From: a virus
Lineage: Duplodnaviria > Heunggongvirae > Uroviricota > Caudoviricetes
IMG/VR virus record: IMGVR_UViG_2693429557_000008
Location: 1-12,679 of that record
DNA: 12,679 bases
Reading direction: 5' to 3' (one strand)
A program made the translations under genes and the position numbers. This document shows positions 1 through 12,679 of the stretch, one piece after another. Every line of letters starts with the position of its first letter. Position 1 is the first letter of the stretch. Under the pieces are notes generated by a model. That model ran no database searches, was not told the DNA's origin, and worked only from the letters and a program-made list of their open reading frames with translations.

Positions 1-26
1 TTATCGAATACCTCGGTTTACAGGAA
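1..26 (+). other. Invertase crossover site 1 (gix/cix/hix-like 26-bp site, ttatcgaatacc-tc-ggtttacaggaa) lying inside the tail-fibre reading frame
   Basis: Two imperfect 12-bp half-sites flanking a central TC, resembling hix/gix half-sites (TTATCnAAnACC) as I recall them. An exact inverted copy lies at 2953-2978 and a 2-mismatch inverted copy at 4944-4969. The site is read through in frame as I-E-Y-L-G-L-Q-E-T. Confidence 0.8.
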
Positions 27-971
27 ACGGTAAATCAGGCTTCTGGCGCATTACAGAAAAACCAGAACGGCGCAGATATTCCGGGGAAAGATACCTTCAC
101 CAAAAATATTGGTGCCTGCCGCGCATATAGCTCATGGCTGAATATTGGTGGCGATAGTCAGGTCTGGACAACCGCGCAATTTATTTCGTGGCTGGAGAGT
201 CAGGGAGCATTTAACCATCCTTACTGGATGTGCAAAGGCTCATGGGCTTATGCAAATAATAAGGTCATTACAGATACAGGTTGCGGAAATATTTGTCTTG
301 CAGGTGCTGTGGTGGAAGTTATTGGCACTCGCGGCGCAATGACCATACGCGTTACCACGCCGAGCACGTCCAGCGGTGGCGGAATTACTAACGCTCAATT
401 CACTTATATTAATCATGGTGATGCTTACGCTCCTGGCTGGCGACGAGACTACAACACGAAAAATCAACAACCTGCATTTGCTTTAGGGCAAACAGGAAGC
501 ACTGTCGGAAATGATAAAGCTGTTGGCTGGAACTGGAATAGCGGGGTCTATAACGCAAACATTGGTGGCGCATCGACATTAATCCTCCACTTCAATATGA
601 ATACGGGGAGCTGCCCTGCTGTACAGTTCCGCGTGAATTACAGGAACGGCGGTATTTTTTATCGTTCAGCGCGTGATGGTTATGGCTTTGAAGCTGACTG
701 GTCAGAGTTTTACACCACAACCCGCAAACCCTCTGCGGGAGATGTTGGTGCATATACGCAGGCAGAATGTAACTCAAGGTTTATTACAGGTATTCGCCTT
801 GGTGGTCTGTTATCTGTTCAGACATGGAATGGTCCCGGATGGTCTGACAGGTCAGGTTATGTTGTTACCGGTTCCGTTAACTCAAACAGAGATGAACTAA
901 TTGATACAACTCAGGCAAGGCCAATTCAGTATTGCATTAATGGGACGTGGTATAACGCGGGGAGTATTTAA
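1..971 (+). CDS. Tail fibre protein, variable C-terminal segment A (5' end outside window; constant N-terminal part presumably upstream)
   Basis: Open frame from position 3 to TAA at 969-971. It begins inside the crossover site ([12 protein letters not shown]...) and ends with ...RPIQYCINGTWYNAGSI, a C-terminal motif shared with cassettes B and C. A tfa gene follows 2 nt downstream. Confidence 0.85.
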   Translation, partial: IEYLGLQETVNQASGALQKNQNGADIPGKDTFTKNIGACRAYSSWLNIGGDSQVWTTAQFISWLESQGAFNHPYWMCKGSWAYANNKVITDTGCGNICLAGAVVEVIGTRGAMTIRVTTPSTSSGGGITNAQFTYINHGDAYAPGWRRDYNTKNQQPAFALGQTGSTVGNDKAVGWNWNSGVYNANIGGASTLILHFNMNTGSCPAVQFRVNYRNGGIFYRSARDGYGFEADWSEFYTTTRKPSAGDVGAYTQAECNSRFITGIRLGGLLSVQTWNGPGWSDRSGYVVTGSVNSNRDELIDTTQARPIQYCINGTWYNAGSI

Positions 972-973
972 CG

Positions 974-1507
974 ATGATGCACTTAAAAAACATTTCTGCT
1001 GGTAATCCTGAAACAAAAGAGCAATACCAGCTAACGAAACAATTTAACATCAAATGGCTTTATACAGAGGATGGGAAAAACTGGTATGAGGAACAAAAGA
1101 ACTTTCAGCCTGATACGTTGAAAATGGTCTATGACCACAACGGCGTTATTATTTGTATTGAAAAGGATGTTTCAGCAATTAATCCGGAAGGCGCAAGCGT
1201 CGTTGAGGTTCCTGATATTACAGCAAATCGCCGGGCTGATATTTCAGGTAAATGGATGTTCAAAGATGGCGTAGTGATAAAGCGAACTTATACCGGGGAA
1301 GAGCAGAGGCAACAAGCGGAAAATGAAAAGCAAAGCCTGCTACAGCTCGTCAGGGATAAAACCCAGCTATGGGACTCACAGCTACGGCTGGGCATTATTT
1401 CCGACGAGAATAAACAAAAATTAACCGAGTGGATGCTCTATGCGCAGAAGGTCGAATCCACAGACACCTCCAGCCTGCCAGTAACGTTTCCCGAACAACC
1501 AGAATGA
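974..1507 (+). CDS. Tail fibre assembly chaperone (Tfa) for cassette A
   Basis: ATG ATG at 974, 2 nt after the fibre stop, with GGGGAG upstream. The N-terminus MMHLKNISAGNP...DGKNWYEE...FQPDT is the conserved Tfa N-domain, paralogous to the two - strand tfa genes. Ends TGA at 1505-1507. Confidence 0.9.
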   Translation: MMHLKNISAGNPETKEQYQLTKQFNIKWLYTEDGKNWYEEQKNFQPDTLKMVYDHNGVIICIEKDVSAINPEGASVVEVPDITANRRADISGKWMFKDGVVIKRTYTGEEQRQQAENEKQSLLQLVRDKTQLWDSQLRLGIISDENKQKLTEWMLYAQKVESTDTSSLPVTFPEQPE

Positions 1508-1731
1508 GAGAAGGCCCGCTATCGGGCCTTAATTTTTATTCAGGCTTTTGTGGCCATTCAGGATTTGCCGTATCCACACGGCTGACCAGAACACTGTAGC
1601 GTTCCCATGCTTCCAGTCGTGTGCGTTCCTCGTCCGTCGCCATATTCAGCCTGACAGCGCGTTCCAGCGGCTGGATGACTGATTCAGCTTCGGAAAGCAA
1701 TGCGGCCTTTTGTGATTCGGCCTGTTGTTGC
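1273..1731. repeat. Direct repeat copy 1 (~459 bp, ~98-99% identical to 3141-3599): tfa 3' end, terminator and 3' end of the convergent tfa
   Basis: Aligned by eye at a constant offset of 1868 bp. The only differences seen are about 6 substitutions clustered around the terminator. Confidence 0.85.
1511..1538. terminator. Bidirectional rho-independent terminator between convergent tfa genes
   Basis: aaggcccg-ctat-cgggcctt: 8-bp GC-rich stem with 4-nt loop, followed by a T-run on the + strand and preceded by an A-run, so it is U-rich on both transcripts. Confidence 0.65.
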
Positions 1732-2063
1732 AGTTCCTGTTCTGTATATTCCCTCTTTACTACTTTACCATCCAGAAACATCCATTTTCCGTTATTGTCT
1801 GCGTGACGATTTGCCGTAATATCAGGAACTTCAACTATGCTTAGCCCTTCAGGATTAATAGTTGAAACGTCTTTACTGACAGCAACGATGATGTTGTTCT
1901 CATCGTAAGCAATTTTTATGGTGTCTGGCTGAAAATTCTTTTGTTCCTCATACCAGTTTTTGCCATCTTCGCAAAAGAGCCATACCACGCCCGCTTTTTT
2001 AGTTAGCTGGTATTGTTCCGGTGTTTTCGGATTCCCGGCCTTAATATTTTTCAGGTGCATCAT
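1536..2063 (-). CDS. Tail fibre assembly chaperone (Tfa) for cassette B
   Basis: The track ORF 1536..2099 starts at TTG; the conserved [12 protein letters not shown] start is the ATG at 2063, one nt after the cassette B stop. Its C-terminal ~65 aa are identical to the tfa at 3404..3931. Confidence 0.9.
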
Positions 2064-2064
2064 C

Positions 2065-2978
2065 TTAAACACTCCCCACGTTGTACCATATTCCCCCAAT
2101 CAATTTCTGAATTGGCCTTCTGGCAACAGTGTCGACAATATCATCCGCATTGCTGTTAATTGCGGCTGTTAAAACATAACCTGACGCATCGCCAAAGCCG
2201 TAGTCGCGCCATACGTTTTTATATTCAATGCTGCCAAGACGAATATCCCGAACGACATGATTATGCAGCCATGTGCTTAACCAGTTGTTTTCCCACACTG
2301 AACCATAAATATCGCCACTAGACGCAACTTGCGCACCACTTCCCAGCGCAAATCCCCCATCTGTTTTAAAAATGAAATCACCACCACCATCTGAACCGTT
2401 ATTAATATGAACACCATCACCACCGTTATCTTTCCACAAAAACATACGAATTCTTCCGTCTTCGTTGGCGAATGTAATGTGGTGGCGGTAATTACTTTTT
2501 AATCTAAAATTGCTGCCATTAGATTCAATATCTTTATAAAGATGTAATCCTAACTCATCAATATGTCCGATGCGCGAACCATTTGAATAGAAGCTAATAA
2601 TACCATCTCCATCTTGCCTAAATCCGGTGTCGTTATCTCCCAGAACAATGGAGTTTTCACCCAGTGCGTTATCAGTAGCTCCAATAGCTAGACCTCCTTT
2701 AATTTTGGCCCCGTGGCTGACAGATATAGCACCTGTTCTCAGATTTATAGCGAATGGCCTTAATGGGCCGATATTACCGTTTTCGCCTTGTCCTTCAGCC
2801 GTCGGAATGAAATGAAGAAAATCTTCTGAACGACGGAAAATTAGACCGAAGGTATCATTGAAAATTCGCAGCGCATTCACCGTGCCAATTTTCAGTTCTC
2901 CGGTCATTTTATCGCCGGAACGCTGAACGGCGTTACCAGCCTTGTTTACCGTTTCCTGTAAACCGAGGTATTCGATAA
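2065..2978 (-). CDS. Tail fibre alternative C-terminal cassette B (silent in this orientation; no start codon or full constant region of its own)
   Basis: The frame runs from crossover site 2 ([17 protein letters not shown]...) to TAA at 2065-2067 and ends ...[18 protein letters not shown]. The track ORF 2065..3201 extends upstream only by reading through the constant-region fragment and the antisense of a tfa fragment. Confidence 0.8.
2953..2978 (-). other. Invertase crossover site 2 (inverted orientation, 26/26 identical to site 1)
   Basis: The reverse complement of 2949-2978 equals window positions 1-30 exactly. Confidence 0.85.
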
Positions 2979-3131
2979 CGGCAGCAACGGTCGATTTCGC
3001 AAGAATATCCCGCCCGACTTTTGTCAGGGTTGCCAGGCTGGCGACATCATTCCCCGTAAAATACGGAAACTTGCCTGCCGCAGTAGTAAGTCCGGCCAGC
3101 GCCGTCAGGGTGGCATCTTTCGGTTGCTTAC
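2979..3131 (-). pseudogene. Fragment of the tail-fibre constant region (3' ~150 bp) abutting site 2 in inverted orientation
   Basis: In frame with cassette B on the - strand: ...[48 protein letters not shown] followed by IEYLGLQ at the site. It has no start codon and ends abruptly at the boundary of the 459-bp repeat. Confidence 0.7.
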
Positions 3132-3140
3132 CCGCAAGCG

Positions 3141-3375
3141 AGTGATAAAGCGAACTTATACCGGGGAAGAGCAGAGGCAACAAGCGGAAAATGAAAAGCA
3201 AAGCCTGCTACAGCTCGTCAGGGATAAAACCCAGCTATGGGACTCACAGCTACGGCTGGGCATTATTTCCGACGAGAATAAACAAAAATTAACCGAGTGG
3301 ATGCTCTATGCGCAGAAGGTCGAATCCACAGACACCTCCAGCCTGCCAGTAACGTTTCCCGAACAACCAGAATGA
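3141..3375 (+). pseudogene. Truncated tfa gene (3' 235 bp, identical to the 3' end of the tfa at 974..1507)
   Basis: 3141-3375 appears base-for-base identical to 1273-1507 by eye. It encodes only the C-terminal ~77 aa (…KRTYTGEEQRQQAENEKQ…PVTFPEQPE). The track ORF 3124..3375 has no Tfa N-domain. Confidence 0.8.
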
Positions 3376-3378
3376 AAC

Positions 3379-3405
3379 AAGGCCCGATATCGGGCCTTAA
3401 TTTTT
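3379..3405. terminator. Bidirectional rho-independent terminator (second copy)
   Basis: aaggcccg-atat-cgggcctt followed by TTTTT. It is part of the 459-bp direct repeat; the stem is conserved and the loop differs by one base. Confidence 0.65.
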
Positions 3406-3931
3406 ACTCAGGCTTTTGTGGCCATTCTGGCTTTGCCGTATCCACACGGCTGACCAGAACACTGTAGCGTTCCCATGCTTCCAGTCGTGTGCGTTCCTCG
3501 TCCGTCGCCATATTCAGCCTGACAGCGCGTTCCAGCGGCTGGATGACTGATTCAGCTTCGGAAAGCAATGCGGCCTTTTGTGATTCGGCCTGTTGTTGCT
3601 GTTCGTCAGCCGTATAAATCCGTTTAACCACAGCTCCGTCCTTAAACATCCACTTACCGGAATCATCAGCACGACGATTAGCTGTAATATCAGGAACCTC
3701 AACGACGCTATAACCTTCAGGGTTAAGCGTGGAGGCATCTTTGGTGATGGCGACAATAATATTATTTGCATCGTAAACAATCTTTATTGTGTCTGGCTGA
3801 AAGTTCTTCACTTCCTCATACCAGTTTTTTCCGTCCTCAGAGTAAAGCCAGATGACTCCGTGCTTCTTTGTTAACTCATACTGCTCCACTGTTTTAGCAT
3901 TACCTGCTTTTATGTTCTTTAAGTGCATCAT
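3404..3931 (-). CDS. Tail fibre assembly chaperone (Tfa) for cassette C
   Basis: ATG ATG at 3931/3928 ([14 protein letters not shown]...), one nt after the cassette C stop. The track ORF start at 3964 is likely an upstream extension. It resembles e14 TfaE-type chaperones as I recall them. Confidence 0.9.
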
Positions 3932-3932
3932 A

Positions 3933-4961
3933 TTAAATACTCGCCACATTATACCAAGTGCCATTTATATACTTTTGCACTGGCCTGTAATGAACGCCTG
4001 CAATATTATCGGCAGAGTTTTTTCCGGTATCCTGTACGTTAATCCCCGTCAGTACATAGCCTGACGGGCACTGAAAATTCCATGTTTGCCAGTTGTTCAC
4101 TCCATAATATTGCTGTGAACCAAGTCGAACATCTTTCACATATCTGGAATCAAAATTGCCATAGTTGCCGGGAATAACTTGCGAGCCGCAAAGCCAGTTC
4201 CCGTTATTATCCATGTACGCCTGACCATCGGTGCCATTGGCTGTCCTTGAGTTATTAATCATGTAGATGCCAAATTGCTTATTTCCCAGACCGCCAATCA
4301 TAAATTTGCGGTCGGCATGGTCCTGACGGAGCAAAGCCTGAGCACCATCAGTGGATACCGCATTACGTCCCAAAATAACATTCTGGTCACGCATATGAAT
4401 CCACATGCCGGTACTACTGTTAATTGCAAAACGGTTTGCAAATATATCCCCTGTAACATCAAGACCATGCCCCATGCTTATCCGGCCAGTTCTGAGATTA
4501 AGCGTAAAGGGGCGTAGTGGCCCTATATTACCATTTTCCCCTTCATTCTCTCGTGTAGGGATGATATGCAGGCATTCTTCAGAACGACGAAAAATGGCAC
4601 CAAAAGATGAATTAAATATCCTCAGTGCATTGACTGTCGATATTTTCACTTCACTGCTGAAAAGGGCTTCAACAAGAACAGACAAAGCATTCCATTTAAG
4701 ATTCATCAGGTCTTTAGGCCGGGTGCCAATGATGCGGTGTCTCCATTTGAAATATTCATTGCCGTTGTTGCCTGTTTCAAACCACATGTAGGAATCGGTG
4801 TCTGCATCCGAATTATTTTTAAACCCAATCTTTGCCCAGTCAGTATTTCGAATCCAGGCAAGGATTGAGTCGTTTTCAAAAGTAAGTCCACCGGACAACG
4901 TATCGCCATTTTTTTGCACGGCGTTACCAGCCTTGTTTACCGTTTCCTGTAAACCGAGGTT
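3933..4961 (-). CDS. Tail fibre alternative C-terminal cassette C (silent in this orientation)
   Basis: The frame is open from just inside crossover site 3 to TAA at 3933-3935. The track M at 4919 is actually an in-frame GTG (Val) within ...[17 protein letters not shown].... Ends ...[20 protein letters not shown]. The upstream in-frame stop TAA (4962-4964) sits in the outer arm of site 3. Confidence 0.8.
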
Positions 4962-4969
4962 TTAGATAA
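4944..4969 (-). other. Invertase crossover site 3 (inverted orientation; variant outer arm ttatctaaaacc, same central TC)
   Basis: The reverse complement of 4940-4969 is ttatctaaaacctcggtttacaggaaacgg, matching site 1 at 28 of 30 positions. The inner flank (4921-4939) is identical to the flank of site 2. Confidence 0.8.
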
Positions 4970-5023
4970 TGGCCGTTTCCGGCCTGCATGGCATGATTTG
5001 CGCTTTTGGACGGGAGATTCAGC

Positions 5024-5611
5024 GTGCTGATTGGCTATGTAAGGGTATCAACAAATGACCAGAATACAGACCTGCAACGAAACGCTCTTGTTTGTGCAGG
5101 ATGTGAACAAATATTTGAAGATAAATTAAGCGGGACAAAGACAGACCGACCGGGATTAAAACGCGCTTTAAAGCGCCTTCAAAAAGGTGACACGCTGGTT
5201 GTCTGGAAACTGGATCGCCTCGGGCGAAGCATGAAACATCTGATTTCTCTCGTCGGGGAACTACGGGAGCGAGGAATTAATTTTCGCAGTCTGACCGACA
5301 GCATAGATACATCTTCTCCAATGGGGCGTTTTTTCTTCCACGTGATGGGTGCCCTGGCTGAAATGGAACGTGAATTAATTGTTGAACGTACACTGGCCGG
5401 ACTGGCGGCAGCACGCGCACGGGGGCGCACAGGCGGACGTCGACCGAAGCTGACAAAAGAACAGCATGAGCAAATAGCAAGGCTGATCAAAAACGGGCAC
5501 GACAGAAAACAACTGGCAATAATTTACGGCATTGGTATATCGACGATTTATCGTTACCACCCCGCAGGAGAATCAATCGGAACAATAGAGAAGAGTCAGG
5601 AAACAAAATAA
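5024..5611 (+). CDS. Serine-recombinase DNA invertase (Pin/Gin/Cin/Hin family)
   Basis: MLIGYVRVSTNDQNTDLQRNAL... with the catalytic Ser in the YVRVST motif and a C-terminal HTH region. A GTG start at 5024 has GGGAGA 6 nt upstream; the track ORF begins at an upstream TTG at 5006. Ends TAA at 5609-5611. Confidence 0.93.
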   Translation: MLIGYVRVSTNDQNTDLQRNALVCAGCEQIFEDKLSGTKTDRPGLKRALKRLQKGDTLVVWKLDRLGRSMKHLISLVGELRERGINFRSLTDSIDTSSPMGRFFFHVMGALAEMERELIVERTLAGLAAARARGRTGGRRPKLTKEQHEQIARLIKNGHDRKQLAIIYGIGISTIYRYHPAGESIGTIEKSQETK

Positions 5612-5640
5612 CCGCTAATCTGACCATTAGCGGTTTTTGT
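5611..5640. terminator. Bidirectional rho-independent terminator between invertase (+) and U (-)
   Basis: accgctaat-ctgacc-attagcggt: 9-bp stem with 6-nt loop, followed by TTTTTGT on the + strand and by a U-rich run on the - strand transcript. Confidence 0.7.
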
Positions 5641-5646
5641 GTTAAA

Positions 5647-6141
5647 TCAGAACAACCCTTTAACTGAACTGGCCGCGCTGTTAAGGGATGATGTTACCTT
5701 ATCTTTGAAGCCGGACAGCATATCGCTGAACGATGAGGATTGCAGGCGCTCCCGCAAATCCTCATCACAGCGTTCAAGAGTCAGTGAAAATTCTATCTTT
5801 TTCGCCTTACCGTAGCGATCAAACTCGGAGCGGGTCGTATTCGTTTCGGTCAGGACATACATGCCGTAAATCTGCCCGACGCCATCAATCAGAGGCCAGG
5901 GTCGTCCTGTATACGCCTGCGTGGTCAGCAGCGACAGCGACACTTCGCCACCTGTAATTTCAGGATAAAGCACACCAGAAAGAACGATGCGCTCATCACC
6001 TGCACCGATATACTGCCAGCTTGCCGAACGGTTAACGCGTTCATTTTTCACATGCCGCCAGCTTTTGTTTTGCTGTAACTGCTGATGCGGCAATGTACGC
6101 AGCTCAAAAACAAACATGCCGTAGATCATCATCATGGCCAT
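5647..6141 (-). CDS. U: Tail protein U homologue (P2 gpU-like)
   Basis: About 160 aa, immediately downstream of the tape measure gene, with a …SWRH…LSGVL.PE.TGG… pattern I recall from gpU. The start is ambiguous among ATGs at 6141, 6135 and 6132; GAGGAG at 6144-6149 favours 6135 or 6132. Confidence 0.8.
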   Translation of the reverse strand: MAMMMIYGMFVFELRTLPHQQLQQNKSWRHVKNERVNRSASWQYIGAGDERIVLSGVLYPEITGGEVSLSLLTTQAYTGRPWPLIDGVGQIYGMYVLTETNTTRSEFDRYGKAKKIEFSLTLERCDEDLRERLQSSSFSDMLSGFKDKVTSSLNSAASSVKGLF

Positions 6142-6147
6142 GACTCC

Positions 6148-8955
6148 TCAATCTTTATCGTAAAAACTGCCACGCCCGGCACGGGCGCGCCGTTCCATTT
6201 CTGCCCTGACCATTTCACCGACCAGTTTCGCCAGTTCGCGGGGATTCTGCGTAACAACGTTATGCAGATGAACATGAATTTCACCACCAAATCCGGAGGC
6301 AACAGGCTCCCGGTTACGGGAAGTTACAGGAACTGATGCCACTGGAGAGCGTATGGCCTCCGCCACCGGGCGGGAGCTGGCCGCAACAACAGGGACCAGC
6401 GCCGGAGGCAGCGGAGCCGGGACCACGGGTGTGATATTAATTGCGGGGGCAGGCTTACTGACCTGCGCAATCTTCCGCTCCTGCCACTCCCCACGAACAG
6501 CAAGTGCGCGGGGCAGGTTCTTAAAGACAATATCGCCGGGGCCAATGCGTTTTTTCGTCTCATCAACCAGCTTACCTGTGTTATCAGCAATTTTGCTGAG
6601 TCTGCGTAGCGTCCCGGTATTGCTGTCTGTGAGCGGTTTGTTGTCTTTGGGTTTATCACCTCCGGTGCCATTGCCATTTTCCACAGGCTTCGGCGGATTG
6701 ATTTTCGCCAGGTCCCCCTGAAGCAAGGCAACCTTGTCCTGAAGAATGGCCGCACGCTGTGCGTCTTCGATTTTCTTGCGCGCCCTTTCCGCTTCATCCG
6801 GAAGGACGCCAAGTTTTTCAAGTATCCACGCCAGCGTATCCAGTAGCATTTTTGCAGGTGTCAGAACAAGTTGTAACGCACCGCCAAGAACGTTACCGAA
6901 TATCTCGCCAGCACTGGCACATTTATCCAGCGTTTCCTTGCTGGACTCCATCGGTGACAGCAGCGATTTAAACCAGTTAAAGACCTGAATAATCCCATCG
7001 CGCACGACATCAAAAACAGGGCCAAACCGTTCAAAGGTTTCGCGCAACGGGGTCAGCCTTTCCATAATCCCGCTGAACACCCCGGCAAAAAATGCCCTGA
7101 TGGGATCCCAGTATTTCCAGATAAGAACGGCAGCTCCGGCAAGCGCAGCCACGATAAGACTAACCGGACTGAACAGCGCCCCGATAGCGCCACCAAGTAA
7201 AGAAACGGAACCCGTCACCATTCCCCATAATGCAGGCAGAACCCTGACAACATTCATTGATTCGGTCAGGAGAGAAAAACCGAGACGCAACGTAGCCAGC
7301 TTCCCGTGAAGCACCCCAATAACCAGAGACAACGAACCAACCGTTGCTGTTGTCGCCAGCAGTGCGCCTCCCGCTATCAGTAACTGGCGCGTCAGTGCCG
7401 GGTGGGCCTGCGCCAGCGCCGTCACCTTTGAGACAACCCGCGTGAGCCACTGCGTGACAGAACGCAGCGGACCGTCAACCAGATCACTGATGCGAATACG
7501 CAGACCTTCCCATGCACTGCCGAGTGATTTCAGGTTGCCATCAAGGTTATTGGCCATAACCTTTGCCGTGCGTTCTGCCTCACCGCGCGCGCCTTCAAGT
7601 TCTTTTCTCAGTTTGGCTAAGAAGCCGTCACCTGCCGCATCAACGAGGCCCATAAATGATGTGAAAGCCTCTTCTCCGGCAATGTCCTTAAAGAACGATA
7701 CCCGGTCAACCTCCCCGTATTTGCGGGTGGCTTTATAGAGATCGGCCAGCACATTCTCCATCGGGCGCATTTTGCCTTTGGCGTCAGCAACTGACACCCC
7801 CAGCTCTTTCAGTGCTTCTGCCGCTGCCTTTGGCGGTGATGACAGATTGGCCAGGCTTTTACGCAACGCTGTACCTGCATCACTCCCCCTGATACCCATC
7901 TTCGCCAGCACGCCCGCCATCGCTGCGGCCTGCTCCAGCGATATTCCCAGCTTACCCGCCACCGGACCTGCATATTTCATGGTTTCGCCCAGTGCGCGAA
8001 GGTCAGTGTTGGTACGGGTAAACGCTGCGGTAAGTGTGTCACCGACCCGGTCCATCTGGTCAGCAGAGAGGCCGAACTGCGTCAGGATATTGGAACCAAT
8101 ATCCGCCGTCTCGCCGAGGTCCATACCGCCAGCCGTTGCCATGCTCAGCACGCCGGGAAGCGCAGCCTGAATGGCCTGCGGTGTGAAACCAGCCATTGCA
8201 AGAAATGCCTGTCCACTGGCGGCATCGCCTGCGGTGAACTGCGTTTCAGAGCCAAGTTTTAACGCCTGCTCACGCAGCGCCTTAAACTGCGGGCTGTTTT
8301 TATCGATTCGCGTCAGTGCCTGAACACGGGACATCTCTTTCCCGAACCCGATAGCGGGCTGCAAAAAACGCCCGGCAGCATAGCCGCCCGCTGCCGCCGC
8401 ACCTGTTGCCAGCGCACCACCTGTTTTCAGTTTTCCCGCTGTTTCCTGCGCGCGTGAATACCGCTCACGCGCCTGCGTTACACGCGCAAGCGCCCGCCGT
8501 TCGCGTTCAAGCTGGTTGTTGTATTGTCCGGTGCGTCTGATGGCCTGCTGGATGGTGTTATCGCTGCCTGTCAGGGAAATGCCGTGGCGTTTCAGCTCTC
8601 CGCCAAGTTCCCGCATTTTCTGAATTTCCCGTGTGCGCGATTCATTCAGGCGTTCAAGCCGGGTGCTTAACTGCTGCATCAGCTTTTGTTGTTTTTCGCT
8701 GAGCACTGTACCCGTGCGTTGTAACTGATTAAGGGCGTTAAGCTGGCGTCGTGCTTTCACGATGCCCGCATCCGCTTTACTGACAGCGTCACGGGCGCGC
8801 TCAAATGAACGCGCCTGACGCTCGAGATTTTTGATCGCCCCCTGCGTTCGCTGGATGGAGTCACCAAACTGCCCCATCAGGCGGCGGGCGTTTTCGGCAG
8901 GCCGGGTCAGCCTGTCAACGGCGCTGAAAGCGACCCGGATATCAAGAGTCTTCAT
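6148..8955 (-). CDS. T: Tail tape measure protein (P2 gpT-like)
   Basis: A ~935-aa ORF, alanine/glycine-rich, with predicted hydrophobic segments and a proline-rich C-terminal stretch. It sits between E+E' and U, and its start overlaps the E' end. The track start at 8991 is GTG; ATGs at 8964 and 8955 are alternatives, 8955 having GGGAA 8 nt upstream. Confidence 0.88.
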   Translation of the reverse strand: MKTLDIRVAFSAVDRLTRPAENARRLMGQFGDSIQRTQGAIKNLERQARSFERARDAVSKADAGIVKARRQLNALNQLQRTGTVLSEKQQKLMQQLSTRLERLNESRTREIQKMRELGGELKRHGISLTGSDNTIQQAIRRTGQYNNQLERERRALARVTQARERYSRAQETAGKLKTGGALATGAAAAGGYAAGRFLQPAIGFGKEMSRVQALTRIDKNSPQFKALREQALKLGSETQFTAGDAASGQAFLAMAGFTPQAIQAALPGVLSMATAGGMDLGETADIGSNILTQFGLSADQMDRVGDTLTAAFTRTNTDLRALGETMKYAGPVAGKLGISLEQAAAMAGVLAKMGIRGSDAGTALRKSLANLSSPPKAAAEALKELGVSVADAKGKMRPMENVLADLYKATRKYGEVDRVSFFKDIAGEEAFTSFMGLVDAAGDGFLAKLRKELEGARGEAERTAKVMANNLDGNLKSLGSAWEGLRIRISDLVDGPLRSVTQWLTRVVSKVTALAQAHPALTRQLLIAGGALLATTATVGSLSLVIGVLHGKLATLRLGFSLLTESMNVVRVLPALWGMVTGSVSLLGGAIGALFSPVSLIVAALAGAAVLIWKYWDPIRAFFAGVFSGIMERLTPLRETFERFGPVFDVVRDGIIQVFNWFKSLLSPMESSKETLDKCASAGEIFGNVLGGALQLVLTPAKMLLDTLAWILEKLGVLPDEAERARKKIEDAQRAAILQDKVALLQGDLAKINPPKPVENGNGTGGDKPKDNKPLTDSNTGTLRRLSKIADNTGKLVDETKKRIGPGDIVFKNLPRALAVRGEWQERKIAQVSKPAPAINITPVVPAPLPPALVPVVAASSRPVAEAIRSPVASVPVTSRNREPVASGFGGEIHVHLHNVVTQNPRELAKLVGEMVRAEMERRARAGRGSFYDKD

Positions 8956-9471
8956 TGTCTGCATTCCCGCTGCGAAGTGCCGCCCGCTCACGCCAGCTAA
9001 CCACTTCGCCGGGCGTCATCATGAAGATTTCGGCGGGCGACCAGTTAAAAATGGCGGCAATATCCGCCACAAAGTCTTCTATGTGCTCAAAGCACACAAC
9101 CGTGATCAGGCTTCCGTCGCCTGTTCGTTCTTCTCGCCAGAGTCCGCACCGCTCAAAAAATTTACGGCAACCACACATAACTGAATAAAGTCACGGGATG
9201 CCATTTTTTTGATCGTCACTTCATCCAGTCGCGGTGATGTCACGCGTGACAGCAGCGTAAACATGGATTCCGCTTTCAAATTCAGCACATCAGACAGCGA
9301 CAAATCTCGCAGAGATCCAGCCTGCTCAATAGCCCCGGTGATCTCCACATACGTGATTTTTTCGCCGCCTCGCTCAATTGGTTGGGTAAGTTTTACGCCA
9401 CGCTCACTGGTTTCTTTCACAGTGTCAGCAACGACCGTGTTTTCGGTATCGATGTTTTTCGTCTCTTTCAT
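8942..9471 (-). CDS. E+E' fusion produced by programmed -1 ribosomal frameshift (slip at 9154-9160)
   Basis: The -1 frame is blocked by a stop at 9191-9193 and then open from 9190 to TGA at 8942-8944. The E-frame heptamer T-TTT-TTG lies inside this overlap. The predicted fusion is about 176 aa. Confidence 0.7.
9106..9471 (-). CDS. E: Tail assembly chaperone E (P2 gpE / lambda G analogue)
   Basis: ATG at 9471 with AAGGAG 7 nt upstream. The 121-aa zero-frame product ends at TGA 9108-9106. It lies between the tube gene and the tape measure gene and contains a TTTTTTG slippery heptamer. Confidence 0.8.
   Translation of the reverse strand: MKETKNIDTENTVVADTVKETSERGVKLTQPIERGGEKITYVEITGAIEQAGSLRDLSLSDVLNLKAESMFTLLSRVTSPRLDEVTIKKMASRDFIQLCVVAVNFLSGADSGEKNEQATEA
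9154..9160 (-). promoter_or_regulatory. Slippery heptamer T TTT TTG for the E/E' -1 frameshift
   Basis: The - strand reads aaT TTT TTG agc in the E frame (…V N F L S…). This is the heptamer I recall being reported for the P2 E/E+E' frameshift. Confidence 0.65.
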
Positions 9472-9525
9472 CAGGAAACTCCTTTCAGTCAGAGGCGACG
9501 CACTGCGCCGCCTGCATATTACTTA

Positions 9526-10038
9526 TCAGCCAAGCCCGAGCGCGGAACGGATGCGATCGGGCACAATGTCCCTGCCGTCCTTCCGGTAAATGAAGTTCAG
9601 CAGGTCAATCTCCCACAACGGGCGATCGTTAACACTCAGCTTGTAGTAGGTGTTTTTAATGGCGTAAGTGTGTGATGTGGCTTCGCCCTGTTTGGCTTCC
9701 CCCATATCAATTTCCGTCACACGTCCGCGCATTTCGACTTCATACAGGTCGCTTTCAGCGTCGGTGTAGTATTCACCCGCAAAACGCAGCAGCGTACCGT
9801 CAATCGTGCCGCCATACTTAAGGAACAGCTCACGAACTGCGCCCCCCATGACAAAGCTCGCATCAAGCGCGGAGTCATCCAGGCCGAGATCAATACTTAC
9901 CGCTCCCATCATGCCACCACCCCGGTAGCTGTCGGTTTTGCGCGTCAGCTTAGGCAGAGTGACGGACGTCACCTTACCCACTTCGTTTTCACCATCCACA
10001 AACAGCGTAAAAAAGCGAAGATGTTTTGGTACAGCCAT
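9526..10038 (-). CDS. FII: Tail tube protein (P2 FII-like)
   Basis: A 170-aa ORF whose ATG at 10038 overlaps the sheath TGA stop (shared A at 10038, translational coupling). Size and position match the P2 F_I-F_II pair. Confidence 0.88.
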   Translation of the reverse strand: MAVPKHLRFFTLFVDGENEVGKVTSVTLPKLTRKTDSYRGGGMMGAVSIDLGLDDSALDASFVMGGAVRELFLKYGGTIDGTLLRFAGEYYTDAESDLYEVEMRGRVTEIDMGEAKQGEATSHTYAIKNTYYKLSVNDRPLWEIDLLNFIYRKDGRDIVPDRIRSALGLG

Positions 10039-11222
10039 CAGGCACCTCCCAGCACCGCAAATGCGGGACCAAAGAATTCATCAGTAAACGACTGGTAAAG
10101 CTCCATGTCTTCCAGCGGGGGAACAGGCGTATATTTGTAGCGAATACGCACGCGCCCCTGACGTAAATTCGTGGTGCCGTTATCCACCACGTCATACCAG
10201 CACGACGCCCCAATCAGTTTCCCGGCAGTAACCAGTGAATCCAGTTTTGCCCTGATGGCACCGATAACATCCTTCACGTTCGCAGGCGTCAGTGGACTGT
10301 CGATGGTTTCAAACTGCGCTTCCGCAATTGAATCAGCCAGCACCTGTGCGGTTCGGGTATACACCTCAAAGATGTAGGCGTTCGTTTCCGGTGTGCGGTT
10401 GCCCCAGAAGCGGAACCCGTTGCGACGAATAATGGTCGTGATTTCTTTGTTGTTGAGGCTGTTGGCATCACTGTCTTCGGCCTGCAACGACCAGAACACA
10501 TGCCTGGACATCCCCAGCACATTTTTAACCGGAACGTTGGACAGCGATTTGTGCCAGCCCTGCTCATGGTCAATGTACGCACGAAGGCCGCACGCATAGG
10601 CAGGCGCGGGGAACGTTTCGTTTTTGCCACTTTTCGGGTTGTAGGCGATGAAGTCCGGCCATAAGAGCATCACCTCACGTTCGTTGAATTTCTGGCGGTA
10701 GGTAATTGCCTCAGCCATCGTGTTACAGTCATGACATGAGGCATACACAAACGCGCGCAGTTTACCCGCAATCACGCACAGGGATTTTGTCACCGCCTCC
10801 GTGTCCAGCTCCGGCGCGGCCAGAATACGCGGACGGTATCCGATGCTTTCATCCTGCTCTGCAACAAGCAGCGCATACATCCCCGTATAGCTGCCGTCAG
10901 ATTCAGAACCACCGATAACCAGTTGATCCTGCGTTTTTCCGTCTTCTTCTTTGTGTTCAGCCACGCGAACGACGATCACCTTTGTGCTCACCTGGTCTGC
11001 GATGGCCTTAAGCGCACGATAAAGCGTCCCCGTTGTTCCGCATTTTCCCAGCACGTCATTGACGCGGGGCAGCAGTGTGGGCTTGTTCAGCGGGAACAGC
11101 TCCGCGTCCGCATCATCCGCCGTTGCCACGATACCGATAACGCTGGAATCAACATCGTTAATCGCTGTTACCAGGTCGGTATTTTCCGTAACACGGGCAC
11201 CATGAAAACGAGTTTCACTCAT
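10038..11222 (-). CDS. FI: Contractile tail sheath protein (P2 FI-like)
   Basis: A 394-aa ORF with motifs I recall from P2-family sheaths (FPLNKP…, EQGWHK.LSNV, RRNGFRFWGNRT, YTRTAQV, YKYTPVPPLE). ATG at 11222 with AAGGGG 8 nt upstream. Confidence 0.93.
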   Translation of the reverse strand: MSETRFHGARVTENTDLVTAINDVDSSVIGIVATADDADAELFPLNKPTLLPRVNDVLGKCGTTGTLYRALKAIADQVSTKVIVVRVAEHKEEDGKTQDQLVIGGSESDGSYTGMYALLVAEQDESIGYRPRILAAPELDTEAVTKSLCVIAGKLRAFVYASCHDCNTMAEAITYRQKFNEREVMLLWPDFIAYNPKSGKNETFPAPAYACGLRAYIDHEQGWHKSLSNVPVKNVLGMSRHVFWSLQAEDSDANSLNNKEITTIIRRNGFRFWGNRTPETNAYIFEVYTRTAQVLADSIAEAQFETIDSPLTPANVKDVIGAIRAKLDSLVTAGKLIGASCWYDVVDNGTTNLRQGRVRIRYKYTPVPPLEDMELYQSFTDEFFGPAFAVLGGA

Positions 11223-11379
11223 AGCTTCAACCCCTTGTATCCGTTAAATGATTCGGCAACAATCATCACCCACCACGCGCGTAATCTCACCCCTGCGCCA
11301 TTCTCCCGCCACGGCGACAACAAAAAGCAGTAACCCCCTCCGCACGCACATGCGACCATGCCACACAGGGAGGGAGCAG

Positions 11380-12489
11380 ATGACCGACACCACCATGCAA
11401 TTGCTCAGTCAGGGCACAGACCCCGTGAAAATGCCGGATTTTGATATTCTCGCGGAGGGTAAAACGCTGTCAGGCGTGGCAGAGCGCCTGATGAGCCTGT
11501 CACTGACCGACAACCGGGGATTTGAGGCGGACCAGCTCACCATCACGCTGGATGATGCGGATGGTCAGTTGCAGCTACCGCCACGGGGCGCGCGCCTGAC
11601 GGTTCTCATTGGCTGGAAGGGAGAACCGCTGACAGAAAAAGGCACTTACATTGTTGATGAAATCGCTCACGAAGGACCGCCGGACAGGCTGACTGTTTCA
11701 GCCAGAAGCGCAGATTTTCGGGCTGAATTTAACGTTAAACGTGAGGTGTCCTGGCATGATGTGACCGTTGAGCGTGTGGTATCCGCCATCGCTCATCGGT
11801 ATGGTCTGAAACCGCAAATCAGCGAAATGCTGATGGATATCGAAATCGACCACGCCGACCAGACCGAAGAAAGCGACATGTCCTTCCTTACGCGCATGGC
11901 GGAAATGCTGGGCGCAATCACCACGGTAAAAAGCGGTAATCTGTTATTCATCATGCCCGGTGGTGGCGTGAACGCACAGGGCCAGCCGTTGCCCTCGTTC
12001 GCCATCACACGCAGCAGCGGCGATCGCCATCAGTTCCGCATTGCTGACCGCGAAGCGTATACGGGGGTACGCGCTTACTGGCTTGATCTTAATTACGGGA
12101 AAAAGAAAAAAGTCAGCGTGAAACGCCGCAAACCGTCAAAACCAAAAAAGGAGAAAAGCAGCAGCCGGGAAGGCGACTATATGGAAGGTGCGGAAGGCAA
12201 CGTGTTTGTGTTACGCAAAACTTATCAGAACGAGCAGGCAGCAAGACGTGCAGCGGCGGCAAAGTGGCAGCAGCTACAACGCGGAGCCGCATCATTCTCC
12301 ATCACACTGGCGCATGGACGTGCAGAACTCTACCCCGAAATGCATGGCACGGTAACAGGATTTAAAAGCGAGATTGATAATCAGGACTGGATTATTGCAA
12401 AAGCCGAGCACACCATTGATAACAGCGGCTTTACCACGCAGCTTGAGCTTGAGGCAAAAATCCCGGAATGGATAGCAGAAACAGAGTGA
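11380..12489 (+). CDS. D: Tail protein D homologue (P2 gpD-like late tail gene)
   Basis: The ORF track opens at 11248, but the ATG at 11380 has GGGAGGGAG upstream and gives MTDTTMQLLSQGTDPVKMPDFDIL…LTDNRGFEADQL…RSADFR…SWHD…, matching the gpD pattern as I remember it. It includes a lysine-rich low-complexity insert (KKKKVSVKRRKPSKPKKEK). Confidence 0.85.
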   Translation: MTDTTMQLLSQGTDPVKMPDFDILAEGKTLSGVAERLMSLSLTDNRGFEADQLTITLDDADGQLQLPPRGARLTVLIGWKGEPLTEKGTYIVDEIAHEGPPDRLTVSARSADFRAEFNVKREVSWHDVTVERVVSAIAHRYGLKPQISEMLMDIEIDHADQTEESDMSFLTRMAEMLGAITTVKSGNLLFIMPGGGVNAQGQPLPSFAITRSSGDRHQFRIADREAYTGVRAYWLDLNYGKKKKVSVKRRKPSKPKKEKSSSREGDYMEGAEGNVFVLRKTYQNEQAARRAAAAKWQQLQRGAASFSITLAHGRAELYPEMHGTVTGFKSEIDNQDWIIAKAEHTIDNSGFTTQLELEAKIPEWIAETE

Positions 12490-12638
12490 GCAACTTAAAT
12501 GTATTAACTCAGAACGGATCAACACACTCACAACATAGAGTCAATATAGCTGCTCGCTTTGTTCCAGCAAGGATGCCTATTTCTAAGGAAAAACAGAGCA
12601 GAAACATATGGTGTTTTCCTACCTGACATCAGGGGTGG

Positions 12639-12679
12639 TAGACTGGCCCCCTGAATCTCCAGACAACCAGTATCACTTA
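12639..12679 (+). mobile_element. Left terminal inverted repeat of an IS2-like insertion sequence (truncated by window end)
   Basis: tagactggccccctgaatctccagacaaccagtatcactta matches the IS2 left end as I remember it (TAGACTGGCCCCCTGAATCTCCAGACAACCAATATCACTTA…) with one difference. Only about 41 bp are visible, and this is from memory, not a search. Confidence 0.6.

Follow-up and report, generated by a model that had tools for sequence, protein, structure and literature searches.

Several invertible loci are known in which recombination chooses among alternative C-termini of one protein. The Min system of p15B, an established and evolved array, has six crossover sites and many isomers, and its Gin-family invertase shuffles fibre C-termini; R64-type shufflons make a similar multi-site choice for the pilus tip protein PilV with the tyrosine recombinase Rci and 19-bp sfx sites. 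The simpler switches, represented by the G segment/Gin of phage Mu and its relatives, the C segment/Cin of P1 and P7 and the P segment/Pin of e14, consist of two convergent cassette-chaperone units between inverted sites beside the invertase gene. A three-site locus was described by Goldberg et al. 2014 (PMC4272514) in a P2-like prophage of enteropathogenic Escherichia coli (EPEC) E2348/69 with three repeats (NC_011601.1, 1891695-1893703). In that strain two overlapping inversions produce four variants with three C-termini of one fibre, and all four coexist as judged by polymerase chain reaction (PCR) (PMC4272514). Here we analyse a three-site tail fibre locus at the start of a 12,679-nt stretch of DNA, positions 1 to 12,679 of the Caudoviricetes record IMGVR_UViG_2693429557_000008 from IMG/VR, hereafter the window. 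The certain part of this locus is an ordinary, known kind of switch, while its third cassette is a graft, made either in silico or by a one-off event.

Crossover sites were sought with the pattern TTCCTGTAAACCGAGGTWTTVGATAA on both strands, and 200 shuffles of the sequence gave the chance level. The gix-type 26-mer had exactly three matches in the window and none in any of the 200 shuffles (0 expected by chance), and these fell at the very positions given in the initial annotation, a sequence-only reading of the same DNA. The central TC it had described belongs to a GA/TC core common to all three sites, and site 1 is inverted with respect to the other two. Over 34 nt no base distinguishes site 1 from site 2, and site 3 departs at two bases of its outer half. 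The three sites had been presented as a departure from the classical two-site G, C and P segments, which is accurate for the window as written; the architecture itself had already been published (PMC4272514).

The same annotation had recognized three different fibre cassettes, each with its own Tfa chaperone, and this was borne out. Cassettes A, B and C (about 300-345 aa) have only short terminal similarity in common, and each is accompanied by its own gene, tfaA, tfaB or tfaC, the product of which gives a full-length Caudo_TAP match (Pfam, E ~1e-37). No promoter-like sites above chance were found in the silent cassettes, and terminators lie between the convergent chaperone genes. The assignment of the recombinase to the Pin/Gin family was likewise confirmed, as the protein carries the N-terminal catalytic domain (Resolvase, E = 1.3e-50, with the serine in YVRVST) and a C-terminal helix-turn-helix domain (HTH_7, E = 1.5e-13), matches the Gin structures 4m6f and 3uj3 at E = 1e-100 over residues 1-181, and is 86% identical to Mu Gin. 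In the Gin, Hin and Cin systems the Fis-dependent recombinational enhancer lies within the 5' part of the invertase gene; over its first ~200 nt the gene in the window differs from Mu gin at only 3 positions, and the putative enhancer region appears intact. In its sequence features the base switch fits the Gin/Hin/Cin/Pin family.

The initial annotation had missed the mosaic origin of the array, together with the 162-bp constant-region fragment adjoining site 2, the truncated tfaA duplicate and the blunt junction. Exact-protein look-ups pointed to Shigella sonnei, and the window is the tail-fibre end of a P2-like prophage of the S. sonnei/E. coli type. In S. sonnei such a prophage is the home of cassette C, tfaC, the invertase and the tail genes; its fibre locus runs H-constant, site, A, tfaA, tfaC, C, site, invertase, with two sites and two cassettes (A and C). 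Site 1 is the same as the H-proximal site of this prophage (L016, 13026-13051). Window positions 3138-12679 match the prophage in S. sonnei CP026802 (L016) with 0 mismatches and 1 gap, and positions 1-1379 are 100% identical to the P2-like prophage in CP032523 (L012); taken together, 1-1507 and 3141-12679 differ from the S. sonnei P2-like prophage by a single indel. The unit made up of tfaB and cassette B is half of a second two-site switch, situated on the side-tail-fibre gene stf of a lambdoid prophage beside the trp operon in the same genomes. The exact TfaB protein is present in the lambdoid prophage of S. sonnei complete genomes, and a 280-aa form of cassette B starting at ATG was found on 374 contigs. 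No mismatch separates window positions 1639-3140 from the lambdoid prophage of CP032523 (L002), and over 1508-3140 only 1635 and 1638 differ; the 162-bp constant-region fragment is 100% identical to lambdoid stf, whereas the P2 H constant region differs from it at 7 positions. From these matches the window reads as P2 prophage over 1-1507, lambdoid prophage over 1508-3140, and P2 prophage again from tfaA nt 300 onwards. In CP032523, the one genome with coordinates for both, the two switch loci are ~0.55 Mb apart.

The two boundaries of the lambdoid segment differ in kind. On the left, the changeover from P2-type to lambdoid sequence lies in a 54-nt identical stretch (1454-1507) and is patchy, being P2-type up to 1507, lambdoid over 1508-1563, P2-type at 1635 and 1638, and lambdoid afterwards. 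On the right, the join at 3140/3141 is blunt, and its two sides have no homology and no common k-mer; the 235-bp tfaA duplicate that follows it belongs to a 300-nt direct repeat (1273-1572 and 3141-3440, 98%). All canonical relatives examined have two sites and only the A/tfaA and tfaC/C pairs. Segment by segment, the array therefore reads as the ordinary two-site A/C switch of a P2-like prophage with a graft added, and not as an evolved three-cassette design. The comparison of its three variants with Min, drawn in the initial annotation, is apt in principle but does not extend to that evolved design, and the suggestion of more sites upstream is not supported, as the upstream region of the canonical relative contains none.

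In the canonical switch the Gin-like invertase, aided by the enhancer in the 5' end of its own gene, would act on the inverted 26-bp sites 1 and 3, with exchange at their 2-bp GA core, and either A and tfaA or C and tfaC would be placed behind the constant part of the fibre gene H. For in-silico inversions, the H constant region of the identical S. sonnei P2-like prophage (L016) was placed upstream of the window, where its junction with cassette A gives exactly the 656-aa H protein. Inversion between sites 1 and 2 (2.95 kb) yields an uninterrupted H-B protein of 637 aa, and inversion between sites 1 and 3 (4.94 kb) an uninterrupted H-C protein of 678 aa, so that the in-frame fusion of an upstream constant region to B or C, foreseen from the window sequence, is obtained with this upstream sequence. 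When every allowed inversion is enumerated, the set is complete with four DNA isomers and three fibre proteins. In the inverted state, recombination between sites 2 and 3 is predicted to flip the A/B unit silently. As these two sites are direct repeats in the window as written, a rare 1,991-bp deletion removing cassette C would also be possible.

Inversion at the parental loci can be recognized in public genomes. H-A (656 aa) and H-C (678 aa) are both present exactly in S. sonnei assemblies, H-C on 10 contigs. The lambdoid fibre segment (locus 9086-12027) lies in opposite orientations in L002 (CP032523) and L006 (CP179990), the outer half-sites being exchanged exactly at the GA core. Thus, each canonical site pair flips in nature, and this evidence covers the two canonical pairs, not site 1 with site 2. 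The pin gene of the lambdoid prophage is a 60-aa remnant, so the enzyme inverting its segment must act in trans. The remnant is 95% identical to the window's site, spacer and first ~190 nt of the invertase gene; it is likely that the lambdoid locus keeps the enhancer in cis and depends on the P2-like prophage for the enzyme in trans. Action of prophage invertases in trans is known, PinQ of the Qin prophage flipping the e14 segment (PMC12529663). The H-B proteins of public drafts (P0001, P0003, P0004) were considered as proof of recombination between sites 1 and 2, but they change partner 5-350 nt before the site; the change lies inside the constant region and they were not counted as such evidence.

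Table 1 Features of the window. Coordinates on the minus strand are written from the start to the end of the gene.
Feature	Position	Strand	Remarks
Crossover site 1	1-26	-	gix-type; core TC on + strand; outer half of constant-region type
Fibre C-terminal cassette A	3-971	+	Reading frame open from window start; 98% to Mu S' variable part
tfaA, chaperone for cassette A	974-1507	+	177 aa; 98% to Mu U'; exact protein on 590 contigs
Graft	1508-3140		Terminator, tfaB, cassette B, site 2, 162 bp stf constant region; matches S. sonnei lambdoid prophage
Bidirectional terminator hairpin, tfaA/tfaB interval	1511-1530		
tfaB, chaperone for cassette B	2063-1536	-	175 aa
Fibre C-terminal cassette B	2976-2065	-	gp37_trimer type; in frame across site 2
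Crossover site 2	2953-2978	+	Core GA; same as site 1, inverted orientation
Fibre constant-region fragment beside site 2	2979-3140	-	162 bp; last 54 codons of lambdoid stf; no 5' part, no promoter
Blunt non-homologous junction creating the three-site array	3140/3141		
Truncated duplicate of tfaA 3' end	3141-3375	+	Identical to 1273-1507 (235 bp); graft scar
Second bidirectional terminator copy	3379-3398		P2-prophage version
tfaC, chaperone for cassette C	3931-3404	-	175 aa; 90% to Mu U
Fibre C-terminal cassette C	4967-3933	-	67% to Mu S variable part; in frame with LGLQETVN across site 3
Crossover site 3	4944-4969	+	Core GA; outer half of invertase-proximal type
Gin-like serine DNA invertase	5024-5611	+	195 aa, GTG start; exact protein on 991 contigs
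P2-type tail module	5647-12489	- (gpU, tape measure, E/E', tube, sheath); + (gpD)	Context of the fibre locus

The contiguity of the three sites, true of the window as written, rests on the single blunt junction, which was found nowhere else. It is absent from 5,426 complete E. coli genomes (megablast of 2900-3450) and, according to exact 38-mer and 23-mer scans, from GTDB representatives, JGI metagenomes and IMG/VR. Exact look-ups among ~15 billion proteins returned no junction-spanning open reading frame (ORF) for any possible start (378, 372, 371 and 83 aa) and no fusion of the constant-region fragment with A as predicted for the other isomers (397, 391 and 390 aa); look-ups of the partial proteins expected at the contig ends (322, 321, 357 and 356 aa) were also negative. 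The collections searched contain neither an isomer of the three-site array nor an ORF bearing the junction in any isomeric form. By contrast, the individual genes of the locus are each found on hundreds of contigs. The left hybrid, P2-type tfaA followed by tfaB, is in no complete E. coli genome, the best match being 96.4%. The sole junction-adjacent product on record is a 77-aa Tfa fragment, which marks contig ends (four contigs listed) and not the junction. Two such contigs, L036 and L037, begin at tfaA 1272 (equivalent to window 1272/3140), 1 nt from the junction, in at least two independent assemblies, and no insertion sequence (IS) bases are present at these ends inside tfaA. At its opposite end, L037 extends precisely to the last base common to the two outer half-sites of the switch.

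Other candidate relatives and causes of the junction did not stand. The locus in H96 (Ecol_867) proved to be a different one lacking one tfa gene. An 81-mer of the left hybrid matched one IMG/VR contig (L200), where it is a lambdoid allele with one shared single-nucleotide polymorphism (SNP) inside another P2/lambdoid hybrid scaffold. The downstream Tfa fragment of the lambdoid prophage has no DNA similarity that would make it the native source of the junction. A fork of k-mers in assembly is not consistent as a cause: the lambdoid right end fits k = 31-32 (3109, the last lambdoid-specific base, plus 31), k = 34-35 would be required for the window start, and no fork at the canonical loci accounts for tfaA 1273. 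An IS boundary is not supported either, since the IS in tfaA of CP032523 is at 1377-1379 and not at 1272, and the L036 and L037 ends are IS-free. Reading of the sequence near the junction disclosed no gix-like half-site with a correctly placed core that could represent a secondary site of the invertase.

We infer that the junction was most probably formed after sequencing, by an assembly, scaffolding or gap-closing step that joined two loci, and estimate the probability of this at about 0.55; the cell would then hold two two-site switches and not one three-site switch. Draft S. sonnei assemblies (L031-L035 and L200) are visibly chimeric between exactly these P2-like and lambdoid loci, with duplicated I-H genes, the P2 invertase beside lambdoid genes and H fused to cassette B, and the joins are often marked by a single N; some of these draft joins may be real homologous exchange between the prophages. 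The SNP combination C..C with tfaB occurs elsewhere at only two places, both in Sanger scaffolds (L032 and L034), the 13 other tfaB loci having T..T. The patchwork of SNPs and the near-coincidence of the junction with a recurrent contig end are a better fit to an in-silico origin than to a real graft. Several observations weigh on the other side. The sides of the blunt join have no common k-mer, so a plain de Bruijn assembler needs reads containing the join; the window has no N, while chimeric joins visible in other scaffolds carry a single N; a 235-nt exact repeat within one contig suggests support by reads or read pairs; and the coincidence with the L036 and L037 ends is inexact, these being at 1272 and not 1273.

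A graft physically present in one isolate, as a singleton rearrangement, is somewhat less probable. It would have arisen by recent templated insertion from the co-resident lambdoid prophage just after tfaA, the terminator, tfaB, cassette B, site 2 and 162 bp of stf being copied, with entry through the 54-nt homology at 1454-1507 and exit through illegitimate joining to nt 300 of tfaA. The resident Gin-like invertase would then drive a functional three-way switch. The parts are competent for this: sites 1 and 2 are identical and all sites have the GA core, the fusions are full-length and in frame, the invertase and its putative enhancer region are intact, promoter-like sites do not exceed the chance level in the silent cassettes, and invertases of this family work on three or more sites in other loci (PMC4272514; public loci). 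Only 3 of the last 65 residues of the constant regions of stf and H differ, so that cassette B should fit on H. Such a graft would nevertheless be a singleton, with no second genome, isomer or junction ORF, although the single genes are on hundreds to thousands of public contigs; the patchwork SNPs and the near-match to a recurrent contig end also count against it, and in the H-B proteins of public drafts the change of partner falls within the constant region and not at the core. An evolved, conserved multi-site fibre shufflon like Min of p15B, possibly with more sites upstream, is very improbable. Three sites with one core, three cassette-chaperone pairs and the existence of multi-site loci in related prophages speak for it, but no relative keeps the arrangement and the canonical upstream region contributes no further site. 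Moreover, the array contains dead scars, namely the promoterless 162-bp constant-region fragment and the truncated tfaA, and both parental parts of the mosaic match separate present-day loci at 100% identity, which leaves no time for selection.

In the P2-type tail module beyond the invertase, the block of sheath, tube, E/E', tape measure and gpU genes (5647-11222, minus strand) is inverted with respect to gpD (11248-12489) and the fibre genes (1-5611), both on the plus strand. Phage P2 itself has a different gene order. The inverted arrangement recurs in every related prophage fetched, and the genes upstream of the fibre locus in relatives are the P2-type I, J, W and V.

As for the ends of the window, its first base is precisely the outermost of site 1. 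If the canonical H gene is placed upstream, the repeat common to sites 1 and 2 would run 4 nt further (GCCG); a repeat-bounded contig would then be expected to begin at -4, not at 1. The right end (12635-12679) falls where an IS element has its edge in S. sonnei CP026802 (L016) and is within ~45 nt of the contig ends of L018, L019 and L027, so that the window resembles a complete short-read contig with repeats at its boundaries.

Switches with three sites have already been published for P2-like prophages, and their mechanism and three-site logic are established experimentally; nothing about how such systems work would therefore change with this locus. If the array is physical, a fibre switch would have gained a third host-range option in one step by borrowing half of another switch, and one S. 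sonnei isolate would have been seen shortly after a ready-made site-cassette-chaperone module passed from its lambdoid prophage into its P2-like prophage. This would offer a plausible origin for multi-site arrays, a snapshot of how arrays such as Min arise, and would mean that prophages with a common invertase can pool receptor-binding cassettes. If instead the array is an assembly join, invertible fibre loci that share sites and chaperone genes between prophages would be a trap for draft assemblies, and equally for readers of the sequence alone.

Among the described systems, the base switch corresponds to the G segment of Mu, moved into a P2-type prophage. It has the layout of convergent cassette-chaperone units shared by Mu, P1/P7 and e14; its site 3 is one base off gixR over 26 bp, with the same GA core; and its cassettes and chaperones correspond to the Mu pairs, A with tfaA to S'/U' and C with tfaC to S/U (identities in Table 1). 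The window departs from Mu and P1 in its host element, a P2-type prophage with GpU, GPD, sheath, tube and tape measure genes, and from Mu, P1 and e14 in showing a third site and a third cassette.

The EPEC prophage is alike in that two of its three sites share an orientation opposite to that of the third, and enumeration for the window gives the same logic. It differs in its 215-bp repeats with a TT/AA-type core (ACCTTGGTTTGGGGGAAGG...), those of the window being 26-34 bp gix-type sites, and in the size of its inversions, 2.0 and 1.6 kb from the tabled coordinates. Its repeat sequence and the related loci L022-L030 suggest that its cassettes are short Collar-type tips sharing a chaperone. Of the 159 Gin-family loci fetched, 21 have three or more crossover-like sites, among them Collar-cassette arrays of 4-8 sites in E. 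coli P2-like prophages. E. coli P2-like prophages carry arrays of 3-8 crossover-like sites with an AA/TT core (L022, L025, L026 and L028-L030, at about 11100-16000), with six ~270-nt repeat copies each in L025 and L026; five or six short Collar-domain fibre tips have one chaperone in common, and the cassette order varies among genomes, as expected of an active shufflon. Further loci of this kind are L061, L078, L088, L096-L099, L103, L104, L106, L107 and L121. These Collar arrays resemble the window in the same or related tail module, the gpU in L022-L030 being identical to that of the window, and in their Gin-family invertase, and they differ in site sequences, in cassette types and in their recurrence in many genomes.

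Pantoea allii LMG24248 (L176, NZ_CP193910.1) has three sites at 5560, 7811 and 8910 and an invertase gene at 8965-9579. It is like the window in its +,-,- topology, its GA core and its three fibre tips, a 376-aa H C-terminus and cassettes of 243 aa and 221 aa. R64-type shufflons are alike in their multi-site choice of a C-terminus, and the enzyme family differs from the serine invertase of the window. With Min, finally, the window has in common one Gin-family invertase, more than two sites and the fibre C-termini on which they act, whereas its third site is a recent, scarred graft that has been seen once.

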